Position numbers and translations under genes: made by a program. The notes below the pieces were generated by a model. The model saw nothing but the letters and a program-made list of their open reading frames with translations, was not told where the DNA came from and ran no database searches. 64,000 nt of DNA from Nitrosomonas sp. (lineage in GTDB: Bacteria; Pseudomonadota; Gammaproteobacteria; Burkholderiales; Nitrosomonadaceae): positions 1,767,485 through 1,831,484 of the forward strand of contig JALDQW010000001.1 in NCBI GenBank assembly GCA_031316255.1. Reading direction: 5' to 3'. Below are positions 5,633 through 40,012 of this stretch, in pieces; positions within the stretch are counted from its first letter, which is position 1; every line of letters starts with the position of its first letter.

Positions 5633-7144
5633 ATGATGAATACACGCGATCCGGTTTTTCTAACCGAAGAAATACGAAAAATTGAACAGACGGCATTTGC
5701 CCAGCCTAATCCGCCTGATTTAATGGAGAAAGCAGGCCGCGCAGCAGCTGAAGTTGCCAGAGAAAGATTCGCCAGCACCATGGAAAGTGCCATGCGCGTT
5801 CTGGTTTTGGCCGGTCCCGGCAACAATGGCGGCGATGCTTTTGTCGCGGCACGCTATCTGAAGCAATGGCACCATGCTGTCACAGTCGTTTTTTGTGCAG
5901 ATTCAGATCGCCTGCCAACGGATGCCAAAAAGGCCAGACTCGCCTGGCTGGATAATCTGGGAGAAATCCAGCCGGACATGCCGGATAACGAAAACTGGGA
6001 TCTGGTTATCGACGGCATATTCGGTATCGGATTGAAACGGGACCGGCCGCTTGCTGGTCAGTATCTGGATTGGATTAACACCGTCAACACACTGCAGTGT
6101 CCCGTGCTGTCGCTTGATATCCCTTCCGGACTCAGCAGCGATAATGGCGATATTTATGGCGCGGCTATCAACGCTACGGTTACCGTTACTTTTATTGGAT
6201 TTAAACCCGGCATTCTGACCCAGTACGGGCCACAGTGTTGCGGTGAAATCATTGTTTGCGGTCTCGATCTTGACGCGGCATCCATACAACCACCCCGGGC
6301 GTGGGTTATCAACCGGAAACTGGTTGATTCTGTACTGTTGCCGCCGCGCCCGGCCAACAGCCACAAAGGCAGCTTTGGCAACGTCGCCATTCTGGGCGGC
6401 AATTCCGGCATGATTGGCGCGGCCTTGCTGGCTGGACGGGCAGCGTTATATCTTGGCGCCGGACGGGTTTATCTGGGCATGCTGGTTGTATCTGCACCCG
6501 AAATCGATCTGCTGCATCCGGAATTAATGCTGCGCTCGCCATCGGAATTATTCGAATTAAGCACAGTTCATTGCCTGATTGCCGGTCCGGGAATGGCCAT
6601 GAACGAATCAACCTATGGCTGGGTGGAACGTGCGCTTGACAGCGATTTCTCCCTGGTTCTGGATGCCGACGCGCTTAACCATATTGCCTTTCACAGCGAA
6701 TTGGCCAGAAAACTCAAACAACGCGATGTCCCCACCGTGCTGACTCCGCACCCCGCTGAAGCAGCGCGCTTATTGGACACGAATGTGTCGACTGTACAAA
6801 GTAATCGCATCGATGCCGCATCAAAACTATCGGAAAAATTCAATTGCCTGATCGTACTTAAAGGCGCAGGCAGTATCTGTGCGACGCCGGACGGCACATG
6901 TTTTTTTAACACCAGCGGTAATCCGGGTCTGAGCAGCGCCGGGACAGGTGATGTTCTTGCTGGCATGATCGGCGCATTGATTGCGCAGGGACAAAAGCCG
7001 CAAGATGCACTGCTGCTGGCAGTCTATCTCCACGGCGCAGCGGCGGATGAATTGCTTAAACAACATCACGGGCCTGTCGGAATGACGGCATCAGAAATCA
7101 TTTCTGCTGCACGATTGCTGCTGAATACATGGATTTACGAATGA
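5633..7144 (+). CDS. nnr: bifunctional NAD(P)H-hydrate epimerase/dehydratase (YjeF)
   Basis: [36 protein letters not shown] and GTGDVLAG motifs; start set at MMNTRDP. Confidence 0.95.
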
Positions 7145-35061: not shown

Positions 35062-36471
35062 GAGGGTGTTCAAAATTCTGTGTCAGTTTGCCAATCACCT
35101 AACGCGCTTCGCTTGTTGACCACTGAAACCGGTGACCGATCGACACAATTCGTGTCGATACGCTAACCAGTTTCAGCGGTGACATAAAAATCTGTATTAA
35201 ATTCATAAATCCAGCGCCGCATCCAAACGCCCCTCAAAATATATCGCAAGCTGGGATAATGTCAAATTCCAGTTTAGTATTGGCATTGTCCATTTTTTGC
35301 TGGCGTTTTTGATACCAACATACAATAATTTCAACAGACTGTTTTCATTCGGAAATCCACCTTTGGTTTTTGTCAGTTTGCGAAATTGGCGATGTACGGC
35401 CTCAATGGTGTTGGTTGTATAAATCACACGGCGTATCGGTTCAGGATATTTGAAGTATACCGATAAATTTTCCCATTTGTTGCGCCAGGATTGAATCACG
35501 ATGGGATACTGTTTTCCCCATTTGGCTTCCAATGCATCAAGCGCATCTTCAGCTGCATCAATGGTCGGCGCTTTGTATACCGGTTTCAGGTCAGCCATGA
35601 ATGCTTTTTGATTTTTTGACGCCACATATTTCATCGAATTGCGGATTTGATGAATAATGCATAACTGAACCTCGGTTTCTGGAAAAATACTGTTGATTGC
35701 CTCAGGAAAACCCACGAGTCCGTCAACGGCGGCAATGAGGATATCCTGTACGCCACGATTATTCAGGTCTGTCAGTACGGAAAGCCAGAATCGGGCGCCT
35801 TCGCTTTCCGAAACATACAACCCCAGCACTTCCTTCCTTCCTTCAATGTTTAAGCCAAGTACGGTATAAACTGCCTTGCTGACATACCGGCCATCGTCTT
35901 TCACTTTGTGATGTATGGCATCCAGCCACACGAACGGATAGTGACTATCCAATGGCCGTTGCTGCCATTCCCTAAGCTCCGGAATAAGCTTGTCAGTGAC
36001 TGCACTGATCGTCGCCGATGAAACGTCAATGCCGTATATCTCGGCAATATGCCCAGAGATATCCTGATAGCTGGAGCCCAACGCAAATAACGATAGAATT
36101 TTGCGTTCGATTTCATCGGTAAGATGAGTCTGATGCTTTTTAACCAACTGAGGTTCAAATGTACCGTTGCGGTCTCTGGGTGTTTCCAGTTGAAAACTAC
36201 CTGATGCTGATTTTACAGTCTTTGGCGTCGTGCCATTCTTCCGGTTCTGTTCATCCCCGGATTTGATATGCTGTTCAAGTTCCGCCGCCAATGCAGCTTC
36301 AGTGAGTTGTTTGATCAATGGCGTTAATATGCCATCTTTTCCATTCAAATTCCGCCCCGCTTTCAAGGATTCCAAGGCTTCTTCAAAATCAAATTGCACT
36401 GTAGTCTTGTTCATTCGTCACTCCTATAAAATTTAATACTAAAGGAATGACACAGAATTTCTAATACTCCC
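35062..36471 (-). mobile_element. IS256-family insertion sequence, 1410 bp
   Basis: IRs GAGGGTGTTCAAAATTCTGTGTCA and (reverse complement) GGGAGTATTAGAAATTCTGTGTCA, 19/24 identical; flanked by an 8-bp direct repeat AAATCGTA (35054-35061 and 36472-36479). Confidence 0.95.
35203..36414 (-). CDS. IS256-family transposase
   Basis: PRDRNGTFEPQ, WLDAIH, AAVDGL, QLCIIHQIRNS and YTTNTIE motifs. Confidence 0.96.
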   Translation of the reverse strand: MNKTTVQFDFEEALESLKAGRNLNGKDGILTPLIKQLTEAALAAELEQHIKSGDEQNRKNGTTPKTVKSASGSFQLETPRDRNGTFEPQLVKKHQTHLTDEIERKILSLFALGSSYQDISGHIAEIYGIDVSSATISAVTDKLIPELREWQQRPLDSHYPFVWLDAIHHKVKDDGRYVSKAVYTVLGLNIEGRKEVLGLYVSESEGARFWLSVLTDLNNRGVQDILIAAVDGLVGFPEAINSIFPETEVQLCIIHQIRNSMKYVASKNQKAFMADLKPVYKAPTIDAAEDALDALEAKWGKQYPIVIQSWRNKWENLSVYFKYPEPIRRVIYTTNTIEAVHRQFRKLTKTKGGFPNENSLLKLLYVGIKNASKKWTMPILNWNLTLSQLAIYFEGRLDAALDL

Positions 36472-36734: not shown

Positions 36735-37373
36735 TCAATCGTCGTTGATCAATCCTCGAATCGCGACGGCCTGCTTTTCCTTGGTGGCGGCAAATTTTCC
36801 GTAAGTTGAAAAGTGATAATGCCAAAAGACAGTTTTGTTTTCATCGGTGAACCAAACCTTCAGTTCGCTATCGGTAGCATCAGGCTTGGCCGCTATCCAC
36901 GGGAAATGTCCGGTTCGGCGCATCAGATTGCCAACACTGGCAGGCATGAAGATATATTTTGAATCACCTTCCAGGATAACCCGATTCAGCCATGCCAGAT
37001 GTTGATCGTCAAGATCGGACGGTACGAGTTTACTCCTGCCATACGTTGGTAAATGCAGTAATTCTATAAAAGCAATTTCAGGTGCATGCGTTTTGGTAAA
37101 GCCGATTTTTGCGAAACTGCGGTGATAGAACTTGCCATCGCCTTTGTAATTGTCCAGTAAGAAAGGATGGTGCACGCCGTATTTTTCCCAAAATAAAACA
37201 TCGTCATCAAGATATTCATACATTTCTTGTGATATTCCGGATTGATCAATATCTTCAGCATAATTTGCATCAAGGCCAATAAACAGATACTTGGCTTTCA
37301 TGGGATCAGTGCCTTGATAGGGACGATTGGAAAACAACCTGTTTAATGTTGTGCTGGGATGTTTATAGTACAT
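36735..37373 (-). CDS. hypothetical protein, possibly with a uracil-DNA glycosylase-like fold
   Basis: 212-aa ORF; YQGTDPMKAKYLFIGLDAN resembles the UDG-superfamily N-terminal motif (pattern impression only). Confidence 0.65.
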   Translation of the reverse strand: MYYKHPSTTLNRLFSNRPYQGTDPMKAKYLFIGLDANYAEDIDQSGISQEMYEYLDDDVLFWEKYGVHHPFLLDNYKGDGKFYHRSFAKIGFTKTHAPEIAFIELLHLPTYGRSKLVPSDLDDQHLAWLNRVILEGDSKYIFMPASVGNLMRRTGHFPWIAAKPDATDSELKVWFTDENKTVFWHYHFSTYGKFAATKEKQAVAIRGLINDD

Positions 37374-37420
37374 AGATAATTTAAACCTCGAGAAAGTTGG
37401 AAGTTATATAGCTGGATCGG

Positions 37421-37606
37421 TTATCTATCTTTGAGCAAGATTCTTAATAATCCCCAAGAAAAGGCAGCAATAAAACCAATACAGAAGAAAACAGTATTGA
37501 TGCTCCATGCCAGAACGGTCACAATCAAACCATTGTCTTTTTTCTGAAGGAAAGAAGGGGTCCATAATAAAGAATTCCAGAGTGGTCTTGATACGAGCTG
37601 TAGTAT
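37421..37606 (-). pseudogene. start-less C-terminal fragment of a membrane protein
   Basis: Open frame ...LWTPSFLQKKDNGLIVTVLAWSINTVFFCIGFIAAFSWGLLRILLKDR*; no start codon; 5' end runs into the left inverted repeat. Confidence 0.35.
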
Positions 37607-37631
37607 ACCTTATTTTTCTTGATTCGCGACC
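37587..37631. repeat. left arm of a ~45-bp inverted repeat pair
   Basis: CTTGATACGAGCTGTAGTATACCTTATTTTTCTTGATTCGCGACC; pairs with 39143-39189. Confidence 0.85.
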
Positions 37632-37710
37632 TGACCCCTATCCGTACGTGACCCCTATCCGTACGTGACCCCTATCCGTATCTGCGCTTGTGACCCCTAT
37701 CTGCGCTTGC
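37632..37710. repeat. tandem TGACCCCTATCCGTACG (17-bp) array plus variants
   Basis: Units at 37632 and 37649, a partial unit at 37666, and a TGACCCCTATCTGCGCTTG variant at 37691. Confidence 0.9.
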
Positions 37711-37858
37711 AGGGAAAATGGGTCTTGCAATACAACATTCAAATTCTCCTCTCTGCCTGGCTCGCAACAGGCAACCAATCCAGTTGTACTGTGGGGTGTT
37801 CAGGTCTAGAATAATAGCCTACTAATATAGGCCTGACGATTATCTATGAATGTATTAA

Positions 37859-37939
37859 TGCAAGACCGAACCCATTTGTGCGTGCAAGACCGAACCCCTT
37901 TGTGCGTGCATGATTGCAAGACGACCCCATAGTGTGCGT
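37859..37939. repeat. tandem TGCAAGACCGAACCC(A/C)TTTGTGCG (24-bp) array
   Basis: Units at 37859 and 37883, degenerate third copy at 37915; inverted partner GGGTCTTGCAA at 37720-37730. Confidence 0.9.
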
Positions 37940-38228
37940 AGCAAATATATGGCATAACTGCCCTCTGAATAAAAACATAGAGTTATAAAGATAATAATTT
38001 GCTTTGCCAGTTTTTATTGTATTAATACTTCTTGAACAGGTAGAAATGAAATTCTTTTTCTTGCTAAAAAGGTTGTTGTTGCTAAGATTGACTTGACATC
38101 GATAATAAAATCTTGCATATCATATTGATGTTTATACTGCTTTTTAATGGTTTTGTTAAATTTATGCTGGTTACGAACGTGGAAATTTGTTTGAGAGAAT
38201 AGTTTTTTTAGAGAAATTGAGGTTGTAT

Positions 38229-39035
38229 ATGCATAGTTTAAAAATATTTGGGAAATTTATTTTTATTTTATTTATTACGGGATGTTCGATTACACCTAAC
38301 TCCAATGAATTAAAAGGTTTAAGACCAATTAGTCAAGATACTAGAGATGCTATCGCGATATGTAGTGGTAAATATGAAAATTCAAACGCAGGTAAACTGC
38401 AGGCTAAATTCCTTAAAAGCGGTGCCAATGCGGAATTAGCTTTAAAGCAGCTGGAAGGTGGTGGGCCAATGTATAGAGATGGTCTGGGAGATACAGCAGC
38501 AGTTGACATGTATAAGGAATACGTTAAATGTATTAAGGCTCATCAATCATTGCAGAGAAAATCACAAGAAAAAAGCCCTAAAGAAGTACAGGAAAAACCA
38601 TACCAGAAGGTAACCAAGTCATTGCATGGCGTGGAGTATGCGTTCAATGGTTGTAACAGAGAAAATGGAAATACGCTGGCGTGTACTCTAGAACTTACCA
38701 GCAAATATCGTGATAGGGGTCTAGTTACTATTGTGGATCGATACAATTATTTTAATCCTAAAGTTGGTCATTTTACTGAAATTTATGGAACTCGTGTATT
38801 TGATAATTACGGAGAGCAATATGGTGTGAATGAAGTCGTCCTTTCAAATAGAGGAGACTTTCGACGTATTATTCTAATTGCAGATGTGCCTGTAACCATG
38901 ACTATGAAATTCCCCAATCTTTCGACAAGAGCTAATGAAATAAAAAAATTTGATTTAGTGGTTGAGACTTGGCTAGATAGGAATTCAGCGGTAGGAATTC
39001 TCGAATTCAGGAATATCTCGATAGAGGAGCTATAA
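38229..39035 (+). CDS. AT-rich lipoprotein of unknown function
   Basis: MHSLKIFGKFIFILFITG-C lipobox; GAGG RBS; visibly more AT-rich than core genes. Confidence 0.8.
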   Translation: MHSLKIFGKFIFILFITGCSITPNSNELKGLRPISQDTRDAIAICSGKYENSNAGKLQAKFLKSGANAELALKQLEGGGPMYRDGLGDTAAVDMYKEYVKCIKAHQSLQRKSQEKSPKEVQEKPYQKVTKSLHGVEYAFNGCNRENGNTLACTLELTSKYRDRGLVTIVDRYNYFNPKVGHFTEIYGTRVFDNYGEQYGVNEVVLSNRGDFRRIILIADVPVTMTMKFPNLSTRANEIKKFDLVVETWLDRNSAVGILEFRNISIEEL

Positions 39036-39142
39036 AGATAAGGTCAGAAGTGAGCCTGTATTTTTTTAGGCAGTTTCTTTAGGAATTATTTTCACATGCA
39101 TCAATGCTATTTTAATAATGGTAATTGTTTGAGGAAAACTGG

Positions 39143-39189
39143 GGTCGCGAATCAAGAAAAAATAAGTGTATGCTTCAGTCTCTGTCAAG
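39143..39189. repeat. right arm of the ~45-bp inverted repeat pair
   Basis: Reverse complement CTTGACAGAGACTGAAGCATACACTTATTTTTTCTTGATTCGCGACC; the inner 19 bp are identical to the left arm; preceded by GGGGTC. Confidence 0.85.
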
Positions 39190-39256
39190 CCCGCTCCGTT
39201 TAAAATTTCCGAATGCGTTTTATCATAATCATCTTGTGGGATTAATTGAAACAATG

Positions 39257-40012
39257 CTAAAGATTACAAAACGTCAGTTCAAATGCGACATCTTTCTCGT
39301 AAACTTTTGCGCGTTGCCCGGATTGCGAGGGAATAAAGCGGATATTCAGTGCATACTTGTTGGCGCTGATTTCTGGAACGCAAGGAAAATCTTCGTTGAC
39401 TCTGACGCGCAGCAAATGCGCGAAATAATCGCTTCCAGGCTGCTGGAAAATGCCCTGATGGGCAATGTTTTGTGTGGTTTTTCCACTGCTTCTCAATAGA
39501 TAGAGCACGATTCCAAATGCGTTGCGAATGGGCAGCATGGGAGCCAGCCATTCGTTGAAATCCTTCCGGCGCATGGCCGGATCCAGATTCAACCAGTAAT
39601 GGTAGGACGGCAGGTCAAACTCACATACGCCGCCCGGAATGCTGGTGCGCTGTTTGATGGTCATAAGCCATTCGTTATCGCGCAGATACTCGCCAACCTT
39701 GCCGGATATTTCCAGCATGGATCGAAAAGTGGTCTGGATATTATCCAGAACATCATCCAGCGCCGTTTCTGAAATATTCGGGTTTTTGCGTAGTGTTTCG
39801 AGCATCTGCTTTTGCCGTTCCAATTCCTGTAATAAATCGGTTTTGATATCCGAACGGCTGGTGACTTCCAGTACCTCAAACAACGTCATCAGCGAAGCAT
39901 GATGTTGTAGCGGAGAATCCTTGGCGGAGAAGAAGTCTATTTTTTTGAACAGGTCTTCTAATCGTAACAGGGTACGGATGCGTTCATTGAGCGGGTGTTC
40001 GTAGCAGATCAC
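39257..40012 (-). CDS. zapD: cell division protein ZapD
   Basis: YEHPLNERIRTLLRLE, PGGVCEFDLP and SANKYALNIRF; C-terminal ELTFC. Confidence 0.95.
   Translation of the reverse strand: MICYEHPLNERIRTLLRLEDLFKKIDFFSAKDSPLQHHASLMTLFEVLEVTSRSDIKTDLLQELERQKQMLETLRKNPNISETALDDVLDNIQTTFRSMLEISGKVGEYLRDNEWLMTIKQRTSIPGGVCEFDLPSYHYWLNLDPAMRRKDFNEWLAPMLPIRNAFGIVLYLLRSSGKTTQNIAHQGIFQQPGSDYFAHLLRVRVNEDFPCVPEISANKYALNIRFIPSQSGQRAKVYEKDVAFELTFCNL

Follow-up and report, generated by a model that had tools for sequence, protein, structure and literature searches.

Relics of TIRtron-type tyrosine transposase units probably flank an unrelated lipoprotein gene near zapD in a Nitrosomonas genome

Introduction

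TIRtrons are units in which a gene resembling those of the REP-associated tyrosine transposases (RAYTs; REP, repetitive extragenic palindrome) is flanked by terminal inverted repeats (TIRs), and the enzymes that they encode are termed TIRYT (Di Nocera et al. 2013, PMC3733652). According to that paper, many TIRs share the sequence GGGGWSAS, and the repeats occur as singles, dimers and clusters. TIRYT corresponds essentially to subclass 2.1 of TnpA_Y1, which is characterised in Quentin et al. 2018 (PMC6006769) by the HuH motif NH[YF]H, the tyrosine motif Y[IV]xLNP, a C-terminal extension of helix-turn-helix (HTH) type and the lack of REPs, and which equals RAYT Group 1. Group 1 is described as the most insertion sequence (IS)-like of the true RAYT groups in Bertels et al. 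2017 (PMC5581495). We report on a stretch of 64,000 nucleotides from a Nitrosomonas sp. genome (contig JALDQW010000001.1; the whole stretch is called the window), in which two arms in inverted orientation flank a single AT-rich lipoprotein gene beside zapD. An earlier note on this DNA had proposed that the arms are the ends of a mobile cassette. We find it probable that they are two independent, non-autonomous TIRtron-derived relics, and that the foreign lipoprotein gene between them is unrelated to either.

Mobile insertion cassettes (MICs), such as MIC231 of Bacillus cereus, carry passenger genes between transposon-type inverted repeats and are mobilised in trans. The likeness of the window locus to MICs is the idea behind the earlier note, namely a passenger gene between inverted repeats without a transposase.

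Results

Two inverted arms in the window

A repeat search of the window found inverted-repeat arms of 28 nt at 37604-37631 and 39143-39170 (86% complementary), which reach 37587-37631 and 39143-39189 when gaps are allowed. Even with three mismatches allowed, the 64 kb contains no sites for their 19-nt core (TTTTTCTTGATTCGCGACC) other than 37613-37631 on the plus strand and 39143-39161 on the minus strand, while 0.02 matches are expected from shuffled sequence and two matches were reached in none of 100 shuffles. The inverted repeat with an identical core that the earlier note had picked out is therefore far beyond chance. Other parts of its description also held: GGGGTC lies at the inner end of each arm (minus strand at 37633-37638, plus strand at 39141-39146), the arrays that it called REP-like are real (tandem units of 17 nt at 37632-37680 and of 24 nt at 37859-37910), the lipoprotein gene is the sole substantial open reading frame (ORF) between the arms (38229-39035), and no transposase or integrase is found among the ORFs there. 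Its arm length of about 45 bp was too short, as each arm covers about 93 nt (37546-37638 and 39141-39233). An nhmmer profile of the arm recovers exactly two copies in the window, at 37566-37637 (E=6.8e-16) and 39139-39224 (E=2e-23). The GC content of the lipoprotein stretch is 27-37%, compared with about 44-50% in the flanks, and inspection of the window sequence found no direct repeat flanking the whole block.

The arms are front ends of TIRYT genes

The 19-mer core was used to scan genomes, one per species, and in a separate scan metagenomes; the stretches compared carry L-numbers and the sequencing runs X-numbers, of which X1-X6 represent wastewater and activated-sludge samples. The core was found in 43 genome stretches, mostly from Nitrosomonas, where about four would be expected by chance for a 19-mer in 596 Gb, and in 33 further stretches from metagenomes. 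Cultured strains rich in arms include Nm84, Nm132 and N. nitrosa Nm90. Among 61 distinct copies, likeness ends abruptly beyond the core, at TGACCC(C/T), here called the tip and equal to GGGGTCA on the opposite strand. Away from the tip it runs on for at least 60 nt, into a gene with an HUH motif. This continuation is the start of a 282-aa gene product (MSRPLRLEFPNALYHVTSRGDRRE…CLMDNHYHLIIET…RYVVLNP) in L038, L039, L007/L032 and several metagenome contigs, and full Y1 genes were found in L038, L039, L061/62/73, L069 and L086.

Intact units consist of a 5' TIR (GGGGTCAGGTCGCGAATCAAGAAAAATAAG, with GGGG outermost), a leader of about 45 nt, the gene for the 282-aa Y1_Tnp protein (MSRPLRLEFPNALYHVTSRG...NHYHLIIET...YVVLNP) and an imperfect 3' TIR, in this order. 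The distance from the TIR to the ATG downstream is 45 nt in L038, where the gene occupies 5691-6536, and in L039, and the imperfect inverted copy of the TIR (TTCTTGATTCTGGAACC) overlaps the stop codon. Residues 11-120 of the protein match Pfam Y1_Tnp ('Transposase IS200 like', E=2.9e-11). Against NCBIfam NF047646 (REP-associated tyrosine transposase) it scores 68.2 bits, below the cut-off of 80, and it is distantly like Escherichia coli TnpArep (PDB 4ER8, E=0.048). The C-terminal extension of about 140 aa has no Pfam HTH match.

Both window arms align onto the 5' end of these intact units (alignment A1), and what remains in them is limited to the 5' TIR, the leader and some 12-20 initial codons of the Y1 gene. 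To judge from their sequence, they are decayed front ends of TIRtron tyrosine transposase units, of the RAYT-like Y1/HUH kind. The left arm (37546-37638, plus strand) is a degenerate relic, defined by the repeat, the nhmmer profile, alignment A1 and its outer breakpoint; it comprises a TIRYT start-codon stub with deletions, the leader, the core (37613-37631) and the tip TGACCCC (37632-37638), which reads GGGGTCAG on the minus strand and points right, toward the lipoprotein gene. The right arm (39141-39233, minus strand), a solo relic defined by the repeat, the nhmmer profile and a match to L035, comprises the TIR core (39143-39161), the leader and a stub still encoding MLQSLSSPLRLKFPNAFYH. Its tip points left, also toward the lipoprotein gene, and the tip proper is shortened, with GGGGTCGCG where GGGGTCAGGTCGCG is expected. 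Since the tips, where likeness among copies stops, face inward, the lipoprotein gene lies outside both units.

The right arm is 93% identical to the solo arm L035:3259-3346 over about 97 aligned columns and has the same outer boundary. Right and left arms are only 56% identical to each other, and the best match of the left arm in the identity matrix is the intact L038 unit, at 69%. The two arms thus come from different subfamilies. The truncation point of the right arm recurs in L014:171-253, and a loose contig end after 39233 in run X4 confirms the outer boundary. As this boundary is common to solo arms in another genome, the right arm arrived as an already truncated unit of 93 nt. Most of the dispersed Nitrosomonas copies are likewise stub arms with the first 12-45 codons of the gene, and several stub-arm subfamilies, each with its own truncation point, are present in multiple copies, which suggests that stubs with one TIR propagate somehow.

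Another derivative, the family-B dimer of about 95 nt, keeps the 5' TIR, the last 12 codons or so and the 3' TIR (alignment A3). Such dimers fold as long hairpins in single-stranded DNA (ssDNA; z=-7.3) and are internal-deletion derivatives of intact units. In run X1, a contig of low depth (2.9x) joins position 727 to 1419 of the L039 TIRtron and is a natural internal-deletion derivative in another community member.

A tblastn search with TIRYT found no cognate gene in the 64-kb window. The depth of the organism is about 24 in run X1 and 17 in run X2. At that depth the contigs of both runs contain the arms, but no gene body with 80% or more similarity to the L039 TIRYT, a result from contig data that leaves room for a more divergent gene.

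Other identities were considered for the arms and rejected. A Tn3-family inverted repeat (GGGG...GAAAAATAAG, which resembles that of Tn21) was dropped, as the arm runs into a Y1 gene, and the TTGACA of the arm, taken as a promoter of the element, is simply how the beginning of the TIRYT gene (ATG TCA AGA) reads on the complementary strand. One sigma-70-like match (TTGAYA-17/18-TATTTT) is present per arm, at 37588-37616 on the plus strand and 39188-39159 on the minus strand, directed toward the tip and the inter-arm DNA. These matches may be a coding by-product, because their -35 box is formed by the first TIRYT codons read in reverse complement; if active, they would make the arms portable outward promoters. 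The left arm was also read as a complete TIR dimer, with GGGGTCC at 37558, and its fold is no better than that of shuffles (z=0.40). No Rfam match exceeded any gathering score, and the only one up to E=1, the plant microRNA family MIR395 (20.2 bits against a cut-off of 56, E=0.9), was deemed a chance match.

Comparison with described repeat and transposase systems

The Nitrosomonas units agree with TIRtrons in having a Y1/HUH gene with TIRs in place of REP hairpins and a 3' TIR that overlaps the gene end, and their protein has NHYH and YVVLNP motifs and a C-terminal extension. The family-consensus tip and that of the left arm (GGGGTCAG) fit GGGGWSAS, while the tip of the right arm, shortened to GGGGTCGC, fits it only in part. 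The Nitrosomonas repeats are dispersed as singles, dimers and clusters, as in TIRtrons, although the window holds only two copies. The earlier note knew of no described element with such ends; they fit the GGGGWSAS TIRs of TIRtrons and TIRYT (PMC3733652; PMC6006769). The stub arms, the multiplied truncation subfamilies and the duplications of tip and flank described below set the Nitrosomonas family apart, as none of these was found in the TIRYT literature to the extent that it was available here. A term search of the text of PMC3733652 found no mention of Nitrosomonas, and the portions of PMC3733652, PMC6006769 and PMC5581495 at hand contain no biochemistry or mobility data for TIRYT.

In REPIN-RAYT systems (Bertels & Rainey 2011, PMC3116915; Ton-Hoang 2012) a Y1 gene is likewise flanked by cognate repeats, and inverted non-autonomous doublets form long hairpins, to which the family-B dimers are the counterpart. 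The differences lie in the TIR (37613-37638 / 39141-39161), which is non-palindromic and without a GTAG head, in the arms, which on their own do not fold better than shuffles (z=0.40 for the left and 1.33 for the right), and in the protein, which falls below the NCBIfam RayT cut-off and is encoded by multiple gene copies per genome, compared with the usual single RAYT. The IS200/IS605 family and its gene-less palindrome-associated transposable elements (PATEs) belong to the same Y1/HUH superfamily, and there too internal-deletion derivatives keep both ends. Their TnpA has about 150 aa, a Y...Q motif, subterminal hairpins and no TIRs, according to Table 1 of PMC6006769 as far as it was drawn on, whereas the Nitrosomonas units have a 282-aa protein, a Y..LNP motif and TIRs. 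Finally, bacterial interspersed mosaic elements (BIMEs) and REP clusters of enterobacteria resemble the stretch at 37546-37938 in being intergenic, of mixed type and alternating orientation, and placed just past gene ends; the window differs in repeat family, in its non-palindromic units and in its gene stubs.

Tandem duplications at the tips and a second type of TIR

At some arms the tip TGACCCC and 7-12 nt of locus-specific flank are duplicated in tandem two to four times, starting exactly at the TIR end. This tip stutter was found in 8 of the 61 distinct arm flanks, compared with 5 of 2998 random 60-mers from the same loci, an enrichment of about 80-fold, and its period is 14-19 nt. Sites other than the window are L014:171, L016:6912, L068, L072, L074, L078, L080 and L055/L086. 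The left arm of the window carries four units on the plus strand (37632-48, 37649-65, 37666-90 and 37691-709), each opening with TGACCCCTA; Tandem Repeats Finder (TRF) reports a period of 17, 2.9 copies and a 100% match. The pattern suggests that the DNA is processed in a way that is fixed to the tip. The structure of the duplications is consistent with nicking and rejoining by a Y1 enzyme or with induced slippage. The stutter seems to be new, as it was not found in those portions of the TIRYT literature that were used. An integron attC or iteron reading of the tandem repeats was rejected, the repeats being accounted for as tip stutter. An integron gene cassette also came into consideration, since arms part toxin-antitoxin modules elsewhere; for the arms, homology to the end of the TIRYT gene is the explanation.

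A second type of TIR shows the same behaviour in 24-nt units. It forms a MITE-like (miniature inverted-repeat transposable element) dimer of 147 nt at 37721-37867 with outward tips, in which GGTCTTGCAATACAACATTCA and TGAATGTATTAATGCAAGACC, the inverted-repeat pair 37721-37741 / 37847-37867, surround a 105-nt loop. Its predicted ssDNA fold has -24.8 kcal/mol (z=-4.45), and none of 200 shuffles was as good. The tip is related to that of the first type, and its stutter (37859-37938, plus strand) is built of units TGCAAGACCGAACCC(A/C)TTTGTGCG (TRF period 24, 96% match), with two tandem copies and a third, degenerate copy (67%) beyond an 8-nt spacer. The second type is absent from all comparison loci retrieved. 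The metagenomes of the source samples hold, at genome depth, further copies that differ in loop and flanks and of which some have a canonical GGGGTCAC tip.

The lipoprotein gene

The lipoprotein gene (38229-39035, plus strand, from the ORF list) encodes 268 aa (MHSLKIFGKFIFILFITGC) with a signal peptide and a lipobox (...FITGC) recognised by reading. It follows an AT-rich region (37939-38228, plus strand) of 27-28% GC, in which a consensus scan places a promoter-like site at 38079-38106 (TTGCTA-16-GATAAT). A terminator-like hairpin and then a T-run (39054-39071, plus strand) lie 3' of the gene in the same kind of scan. The protein has no Pfam or NCBIfam match, and only two relatives were found among 5.8e9 proteins, at 67% and 52% identity. 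The contigs of both are without arms, and DNA likeness to them is confined to the coding sequence; the gene itself was found only at the window locus in sequence and protein searches. An AlphaFold2 model has a predicted local distance difference test (pLDDT) score of 61 overall and 70-85 for residues 130-268, and its C-terminal half is predicted to be a beta-sandwich. Foldseek gave no lead to function, with only generic Ig-like sandwiches (TMq at most 0.29), among them low-TM matches to toxin receptor-binding domains that were deemed meaningless. One metatranscriptome contig (run X22, depth 2.3) covers 38376-38613, while zapD and the other neighbours have none, which is weak evidence that the gene is transcribed. 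The product is probably an orphan surface lipoprotein acquired horizontally.

Flanks of the locus and the search for an empty site

The right arm is followed by intact zapD (39257-40012, minus strand; Pfam ZapD 4.1e-80, NCBIfam ZapD 2e-104), whose stop codon is separated from the outer arm edge by about 23 nt (39234-39256), and then by genes for a PEP-CTERM-type glycosyltransferase and maf. Genes assigned by Pfam and NCBIfam on the left are those for an IS256-family transposase and an RNase T2, with an unknown ORF of 212 aa. The IS256-family transposase at 35203-36414 reaches a depth of 300-1700 in the source samples, where the genome has about 24, and is thus present there in many copies. In run X1 a TIR-like end adjoins another copy of this IS, as the loose end CTTTATTATCGACCTGACCCC before 36416.

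Directly beside the left arm is the 3' remnant of an ORF (37425-37545, minus strand), cut at 37545/37546 as seen from the ORF list and from the contig of a divergent variant. This variant of 36817-37545, about 7% divergent, is present in runs X1, X2, X3 and X6 and probably represents a sister strain, since its ratio to the main genome varies; in X1 a Logan contig of 1,837 nt begins at window position 37481. The variant follows the left flank to 37545 and then continues into unlike DNA (TGTGGCGTTTATTC), so that 37545/37546 is a real breakpoint at the outer edge of the arm. The truncated membrane-protein ORF noted earlier at this place has only this indirect support: the 46-aa ORF at 37425-37565 borrows its first seven codons from the left arm and has no detectable homologue. 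The continuation TGTGGCGTTTATTC was not found in the window, on the zapD side or in any locus examined. The variant does not run into the zapD side, which indicates that the block is not a clean insertion at 37545.

The nearest ZapD homologues, 90-91% identical, are those of Nitrosomonas marina, Nitrosomonas sp. Nm51 and another Nitrosomonas sp. The zapD loci of these nearest relatives (the N. marina group) have different neighbours and no arms, and have only zapD in common with the window. No empty site was found in them or in metagenome contigs with a 53-mer common to both left-flank variants, and the contigs of seven DNA runs contain no joints that skip, invert or circularise the block.

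Arms beside small gene modules in other genomes

In L014 and L016, which belong to one genome, stub arms in the same orientation alternate with PIN_3+RHH, Fic, PIN and NTP_transf_2 (MNT)+HepT modules (L014:171-2789; L016:5070-6912). A HepT 3' fragment and an arm are duplicated jointly at two sites of one genome. At L039:550-3362, and also in L056, L061, L062 and L073, the layout is that of the window: a pair of divergent TIRYT genes (about 65% aa identity) stands head-to-head with the tips facing one PEP-CTERM gene. A further TIRYT fragment lies downstream. That arms cluster with small modules may mean only that both reside in flexible regions.

A block of at least 4.35 kb (L008:1-4352) is 99.8-100% identical in at least 14 assemblies of unrelated labelled taxa (Nitrosomonas, Brocadia, Kiritimatiellales, Gallionella and Burkholderiales), namely L008, L004, L009, L012, L017, L021, L027, L033, L041, L057, L059, L066, L083 and L087. 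It contains an OsmC-like gene, a family-B TIR dimer, an IS5-family transposase and an SbcC-like ATPase. Such a distribution means either that the element is very promiscuous or that bins were cross-contaminated.

Discussion

The reading that we favour, as probable, is that two TIRtron-derived relics, both non-autonomous and independent of each other, came to flank a foreign lipoprotein gene that has nothing to do with them. The locus would then be a flexible patch downstream of zapD where TIR-type repeats and a foreign gene accumulated separately, and the 5' part of the neighbouring ORF would have been lost along the way. If a TIRYT enzyme is still active in trans on the arms, it would bind the TIR on ssDNA and nick or rejoin it near the GGGGTCA tip, and this activity, or slippage provoked by it, would have left the stutter of the tip and 7-12 nt of flank as its scar.

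Several observations weigh against this account. The multiplication of stub arms with a single TIR has no explanation in it. Independent insertion is deduced from the difference in subfamily and from polarity, and no close sister genome shows the state before insertion. The head-to-head layout of the L039 type and the arms that part toxin-antitoxin modules elsewhere may allow a link between arms and cargo. Lastly, the Logan contig L002 ends at both arms, spanning exactly 37651-39188, though assemblers break at any dispersed repeat.

An alternative that we regard as unlikely is a fossil composite, in which two complete TIRtrons placed head-to-head once moved the lipoprotein gene and later lost their transposase genes by deletion, leaving stubs of 93 nt. 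In its favour, the arrangement TIRYT1 <- arm / PEP-CTERM gene / arm -> TIRYT2 in L039, L056, L061, L062 and L073 matches the window in polarity and resembles it in spacing, which is about 1.1 kb there. Those assemblies represent one locus, however, and the window lacks the outer 3' TIRs that the units would need in order to move jointly. The truncation that the right arm has in common with L035:3259-3346 and L014:171-253 also dates the stub to before its arrival and speaks against decay in place, and in contrast to a composite transposon the locus has only the 93-nt stubs and no complete transposase-encoding copies.

Rather more doubtful is gene capture, in which the TIR arms would be working junctions of a Y1/HUH system that ligates single genes or toxin-antitoxin modules beside the tips. 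It is equally doubtful that arrays of arm-cargo units (lipoprotein, PEP-CTERM, PIN-RHH, Fic and MNT-HepT) arose in this way, with the stutter as the scar of repeated cleavage and ligation. The arms of one orientation that part the PIN+RHH, Fic, PIN and MNT+HepT modules of L014 and L016 are in keeping with capture, as are the AT-rich foreign segment extending from the tip stutter (37938) to the other tip (39141), the stutter itself, in which DNA has been processed repeatedly and exactly at tips, and the joint duplication of the HepT 3' fragment and an arm. Against this, DNA beside any repeat abuts its end, toxin-antitoxin modules and repeats both gather in flexible regions, and orientation within the clusters is mixed, with about five direct and three inverted. 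Apart from the HepT fragment, the same cargo and arm were not found at two sites with the same junction, and there is no biochemical precedent.

The cassette of the earlier note, a non-autonomous, gene-carrying element of 1.6 kb with the arms as its ends, mobilised in trans by a Y1/RAYT enzyme, now seems very improbable. In its favour are the significance of the inverted repeat, the left edge that coincides with a breakpoint in the neighbouring ORF, the extent of L002 and the genuine association of the arms with Y1 genes. The last point also sustains the suggestion that the arms belong with an HUH/Y1 (RAYT-type) enzyme, being the TIR, leader and first codons of such genes, and the genome-wide survey proposed at the time found them dispersed in many Nitrosomonas genomes and elsewhere beside Y1 genes and variable small modules. 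The tips, however, face inward, the arms are only 56% alike, the homologues of the cargo are without arms and no second copy of the block is known from our searches. The left flank of the variant does not reach the zapD side, and the empty site, circle or inversion that the note suggested looking for was seen neither in the zapD loci of relatives nor in the run contigs. No TIRYT gene body with 80% or more similarity to that of L039 stands at genome depth in X1/X2, and contig breaks such as those of L002 are expected at any dispersed repeat. The contrast with MICs is in keeping with this: MICs have IS termini of their own that face outward and match one IS, whereas the termini in the window face inward, belong to two subfamilies and show no sign of movement. 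The observations fit the outcome that the note itself had named as refuting it, namely that a dispersed repeat inserted independently and has no relation to the cargo, and the cassette model is largely refuted.

That the arms invert the segment as a phase-variation switch can be practically dismissed: inverted repeats do flank a surface-protein gene, but the promoter-like region lies inside the segment, so that inversion would not switch the gene, identity between the arms is limited to 19-28 bp, no neighbouring gene encodes a recombinase and no strand-change joints occur in the contigs of the seven DNA runs.

For the locus itself the result is deflationary, as an orphan lipoprotein gene happens to sit between two relics of a known class of repeat and transposase. 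Its value lies in the family, since TIRYT, or RAYT Group 1, or TnpA_Y1 subclass 2.1, is the largest RAYT-like group, and Nitrosomonas offers a rich natural data set of intact units, deletion dimers, proliferating stub-arm subfamilies and tip-anchored tandem duplications. If gene capture were true, it would be a single-strand tyrosine transposase analogue of integron arrays. The stutter footprint predicts that the enzyme cuts about 7-12 nt outside GGGGTCA, which makes the function of TIRYT directly testable.

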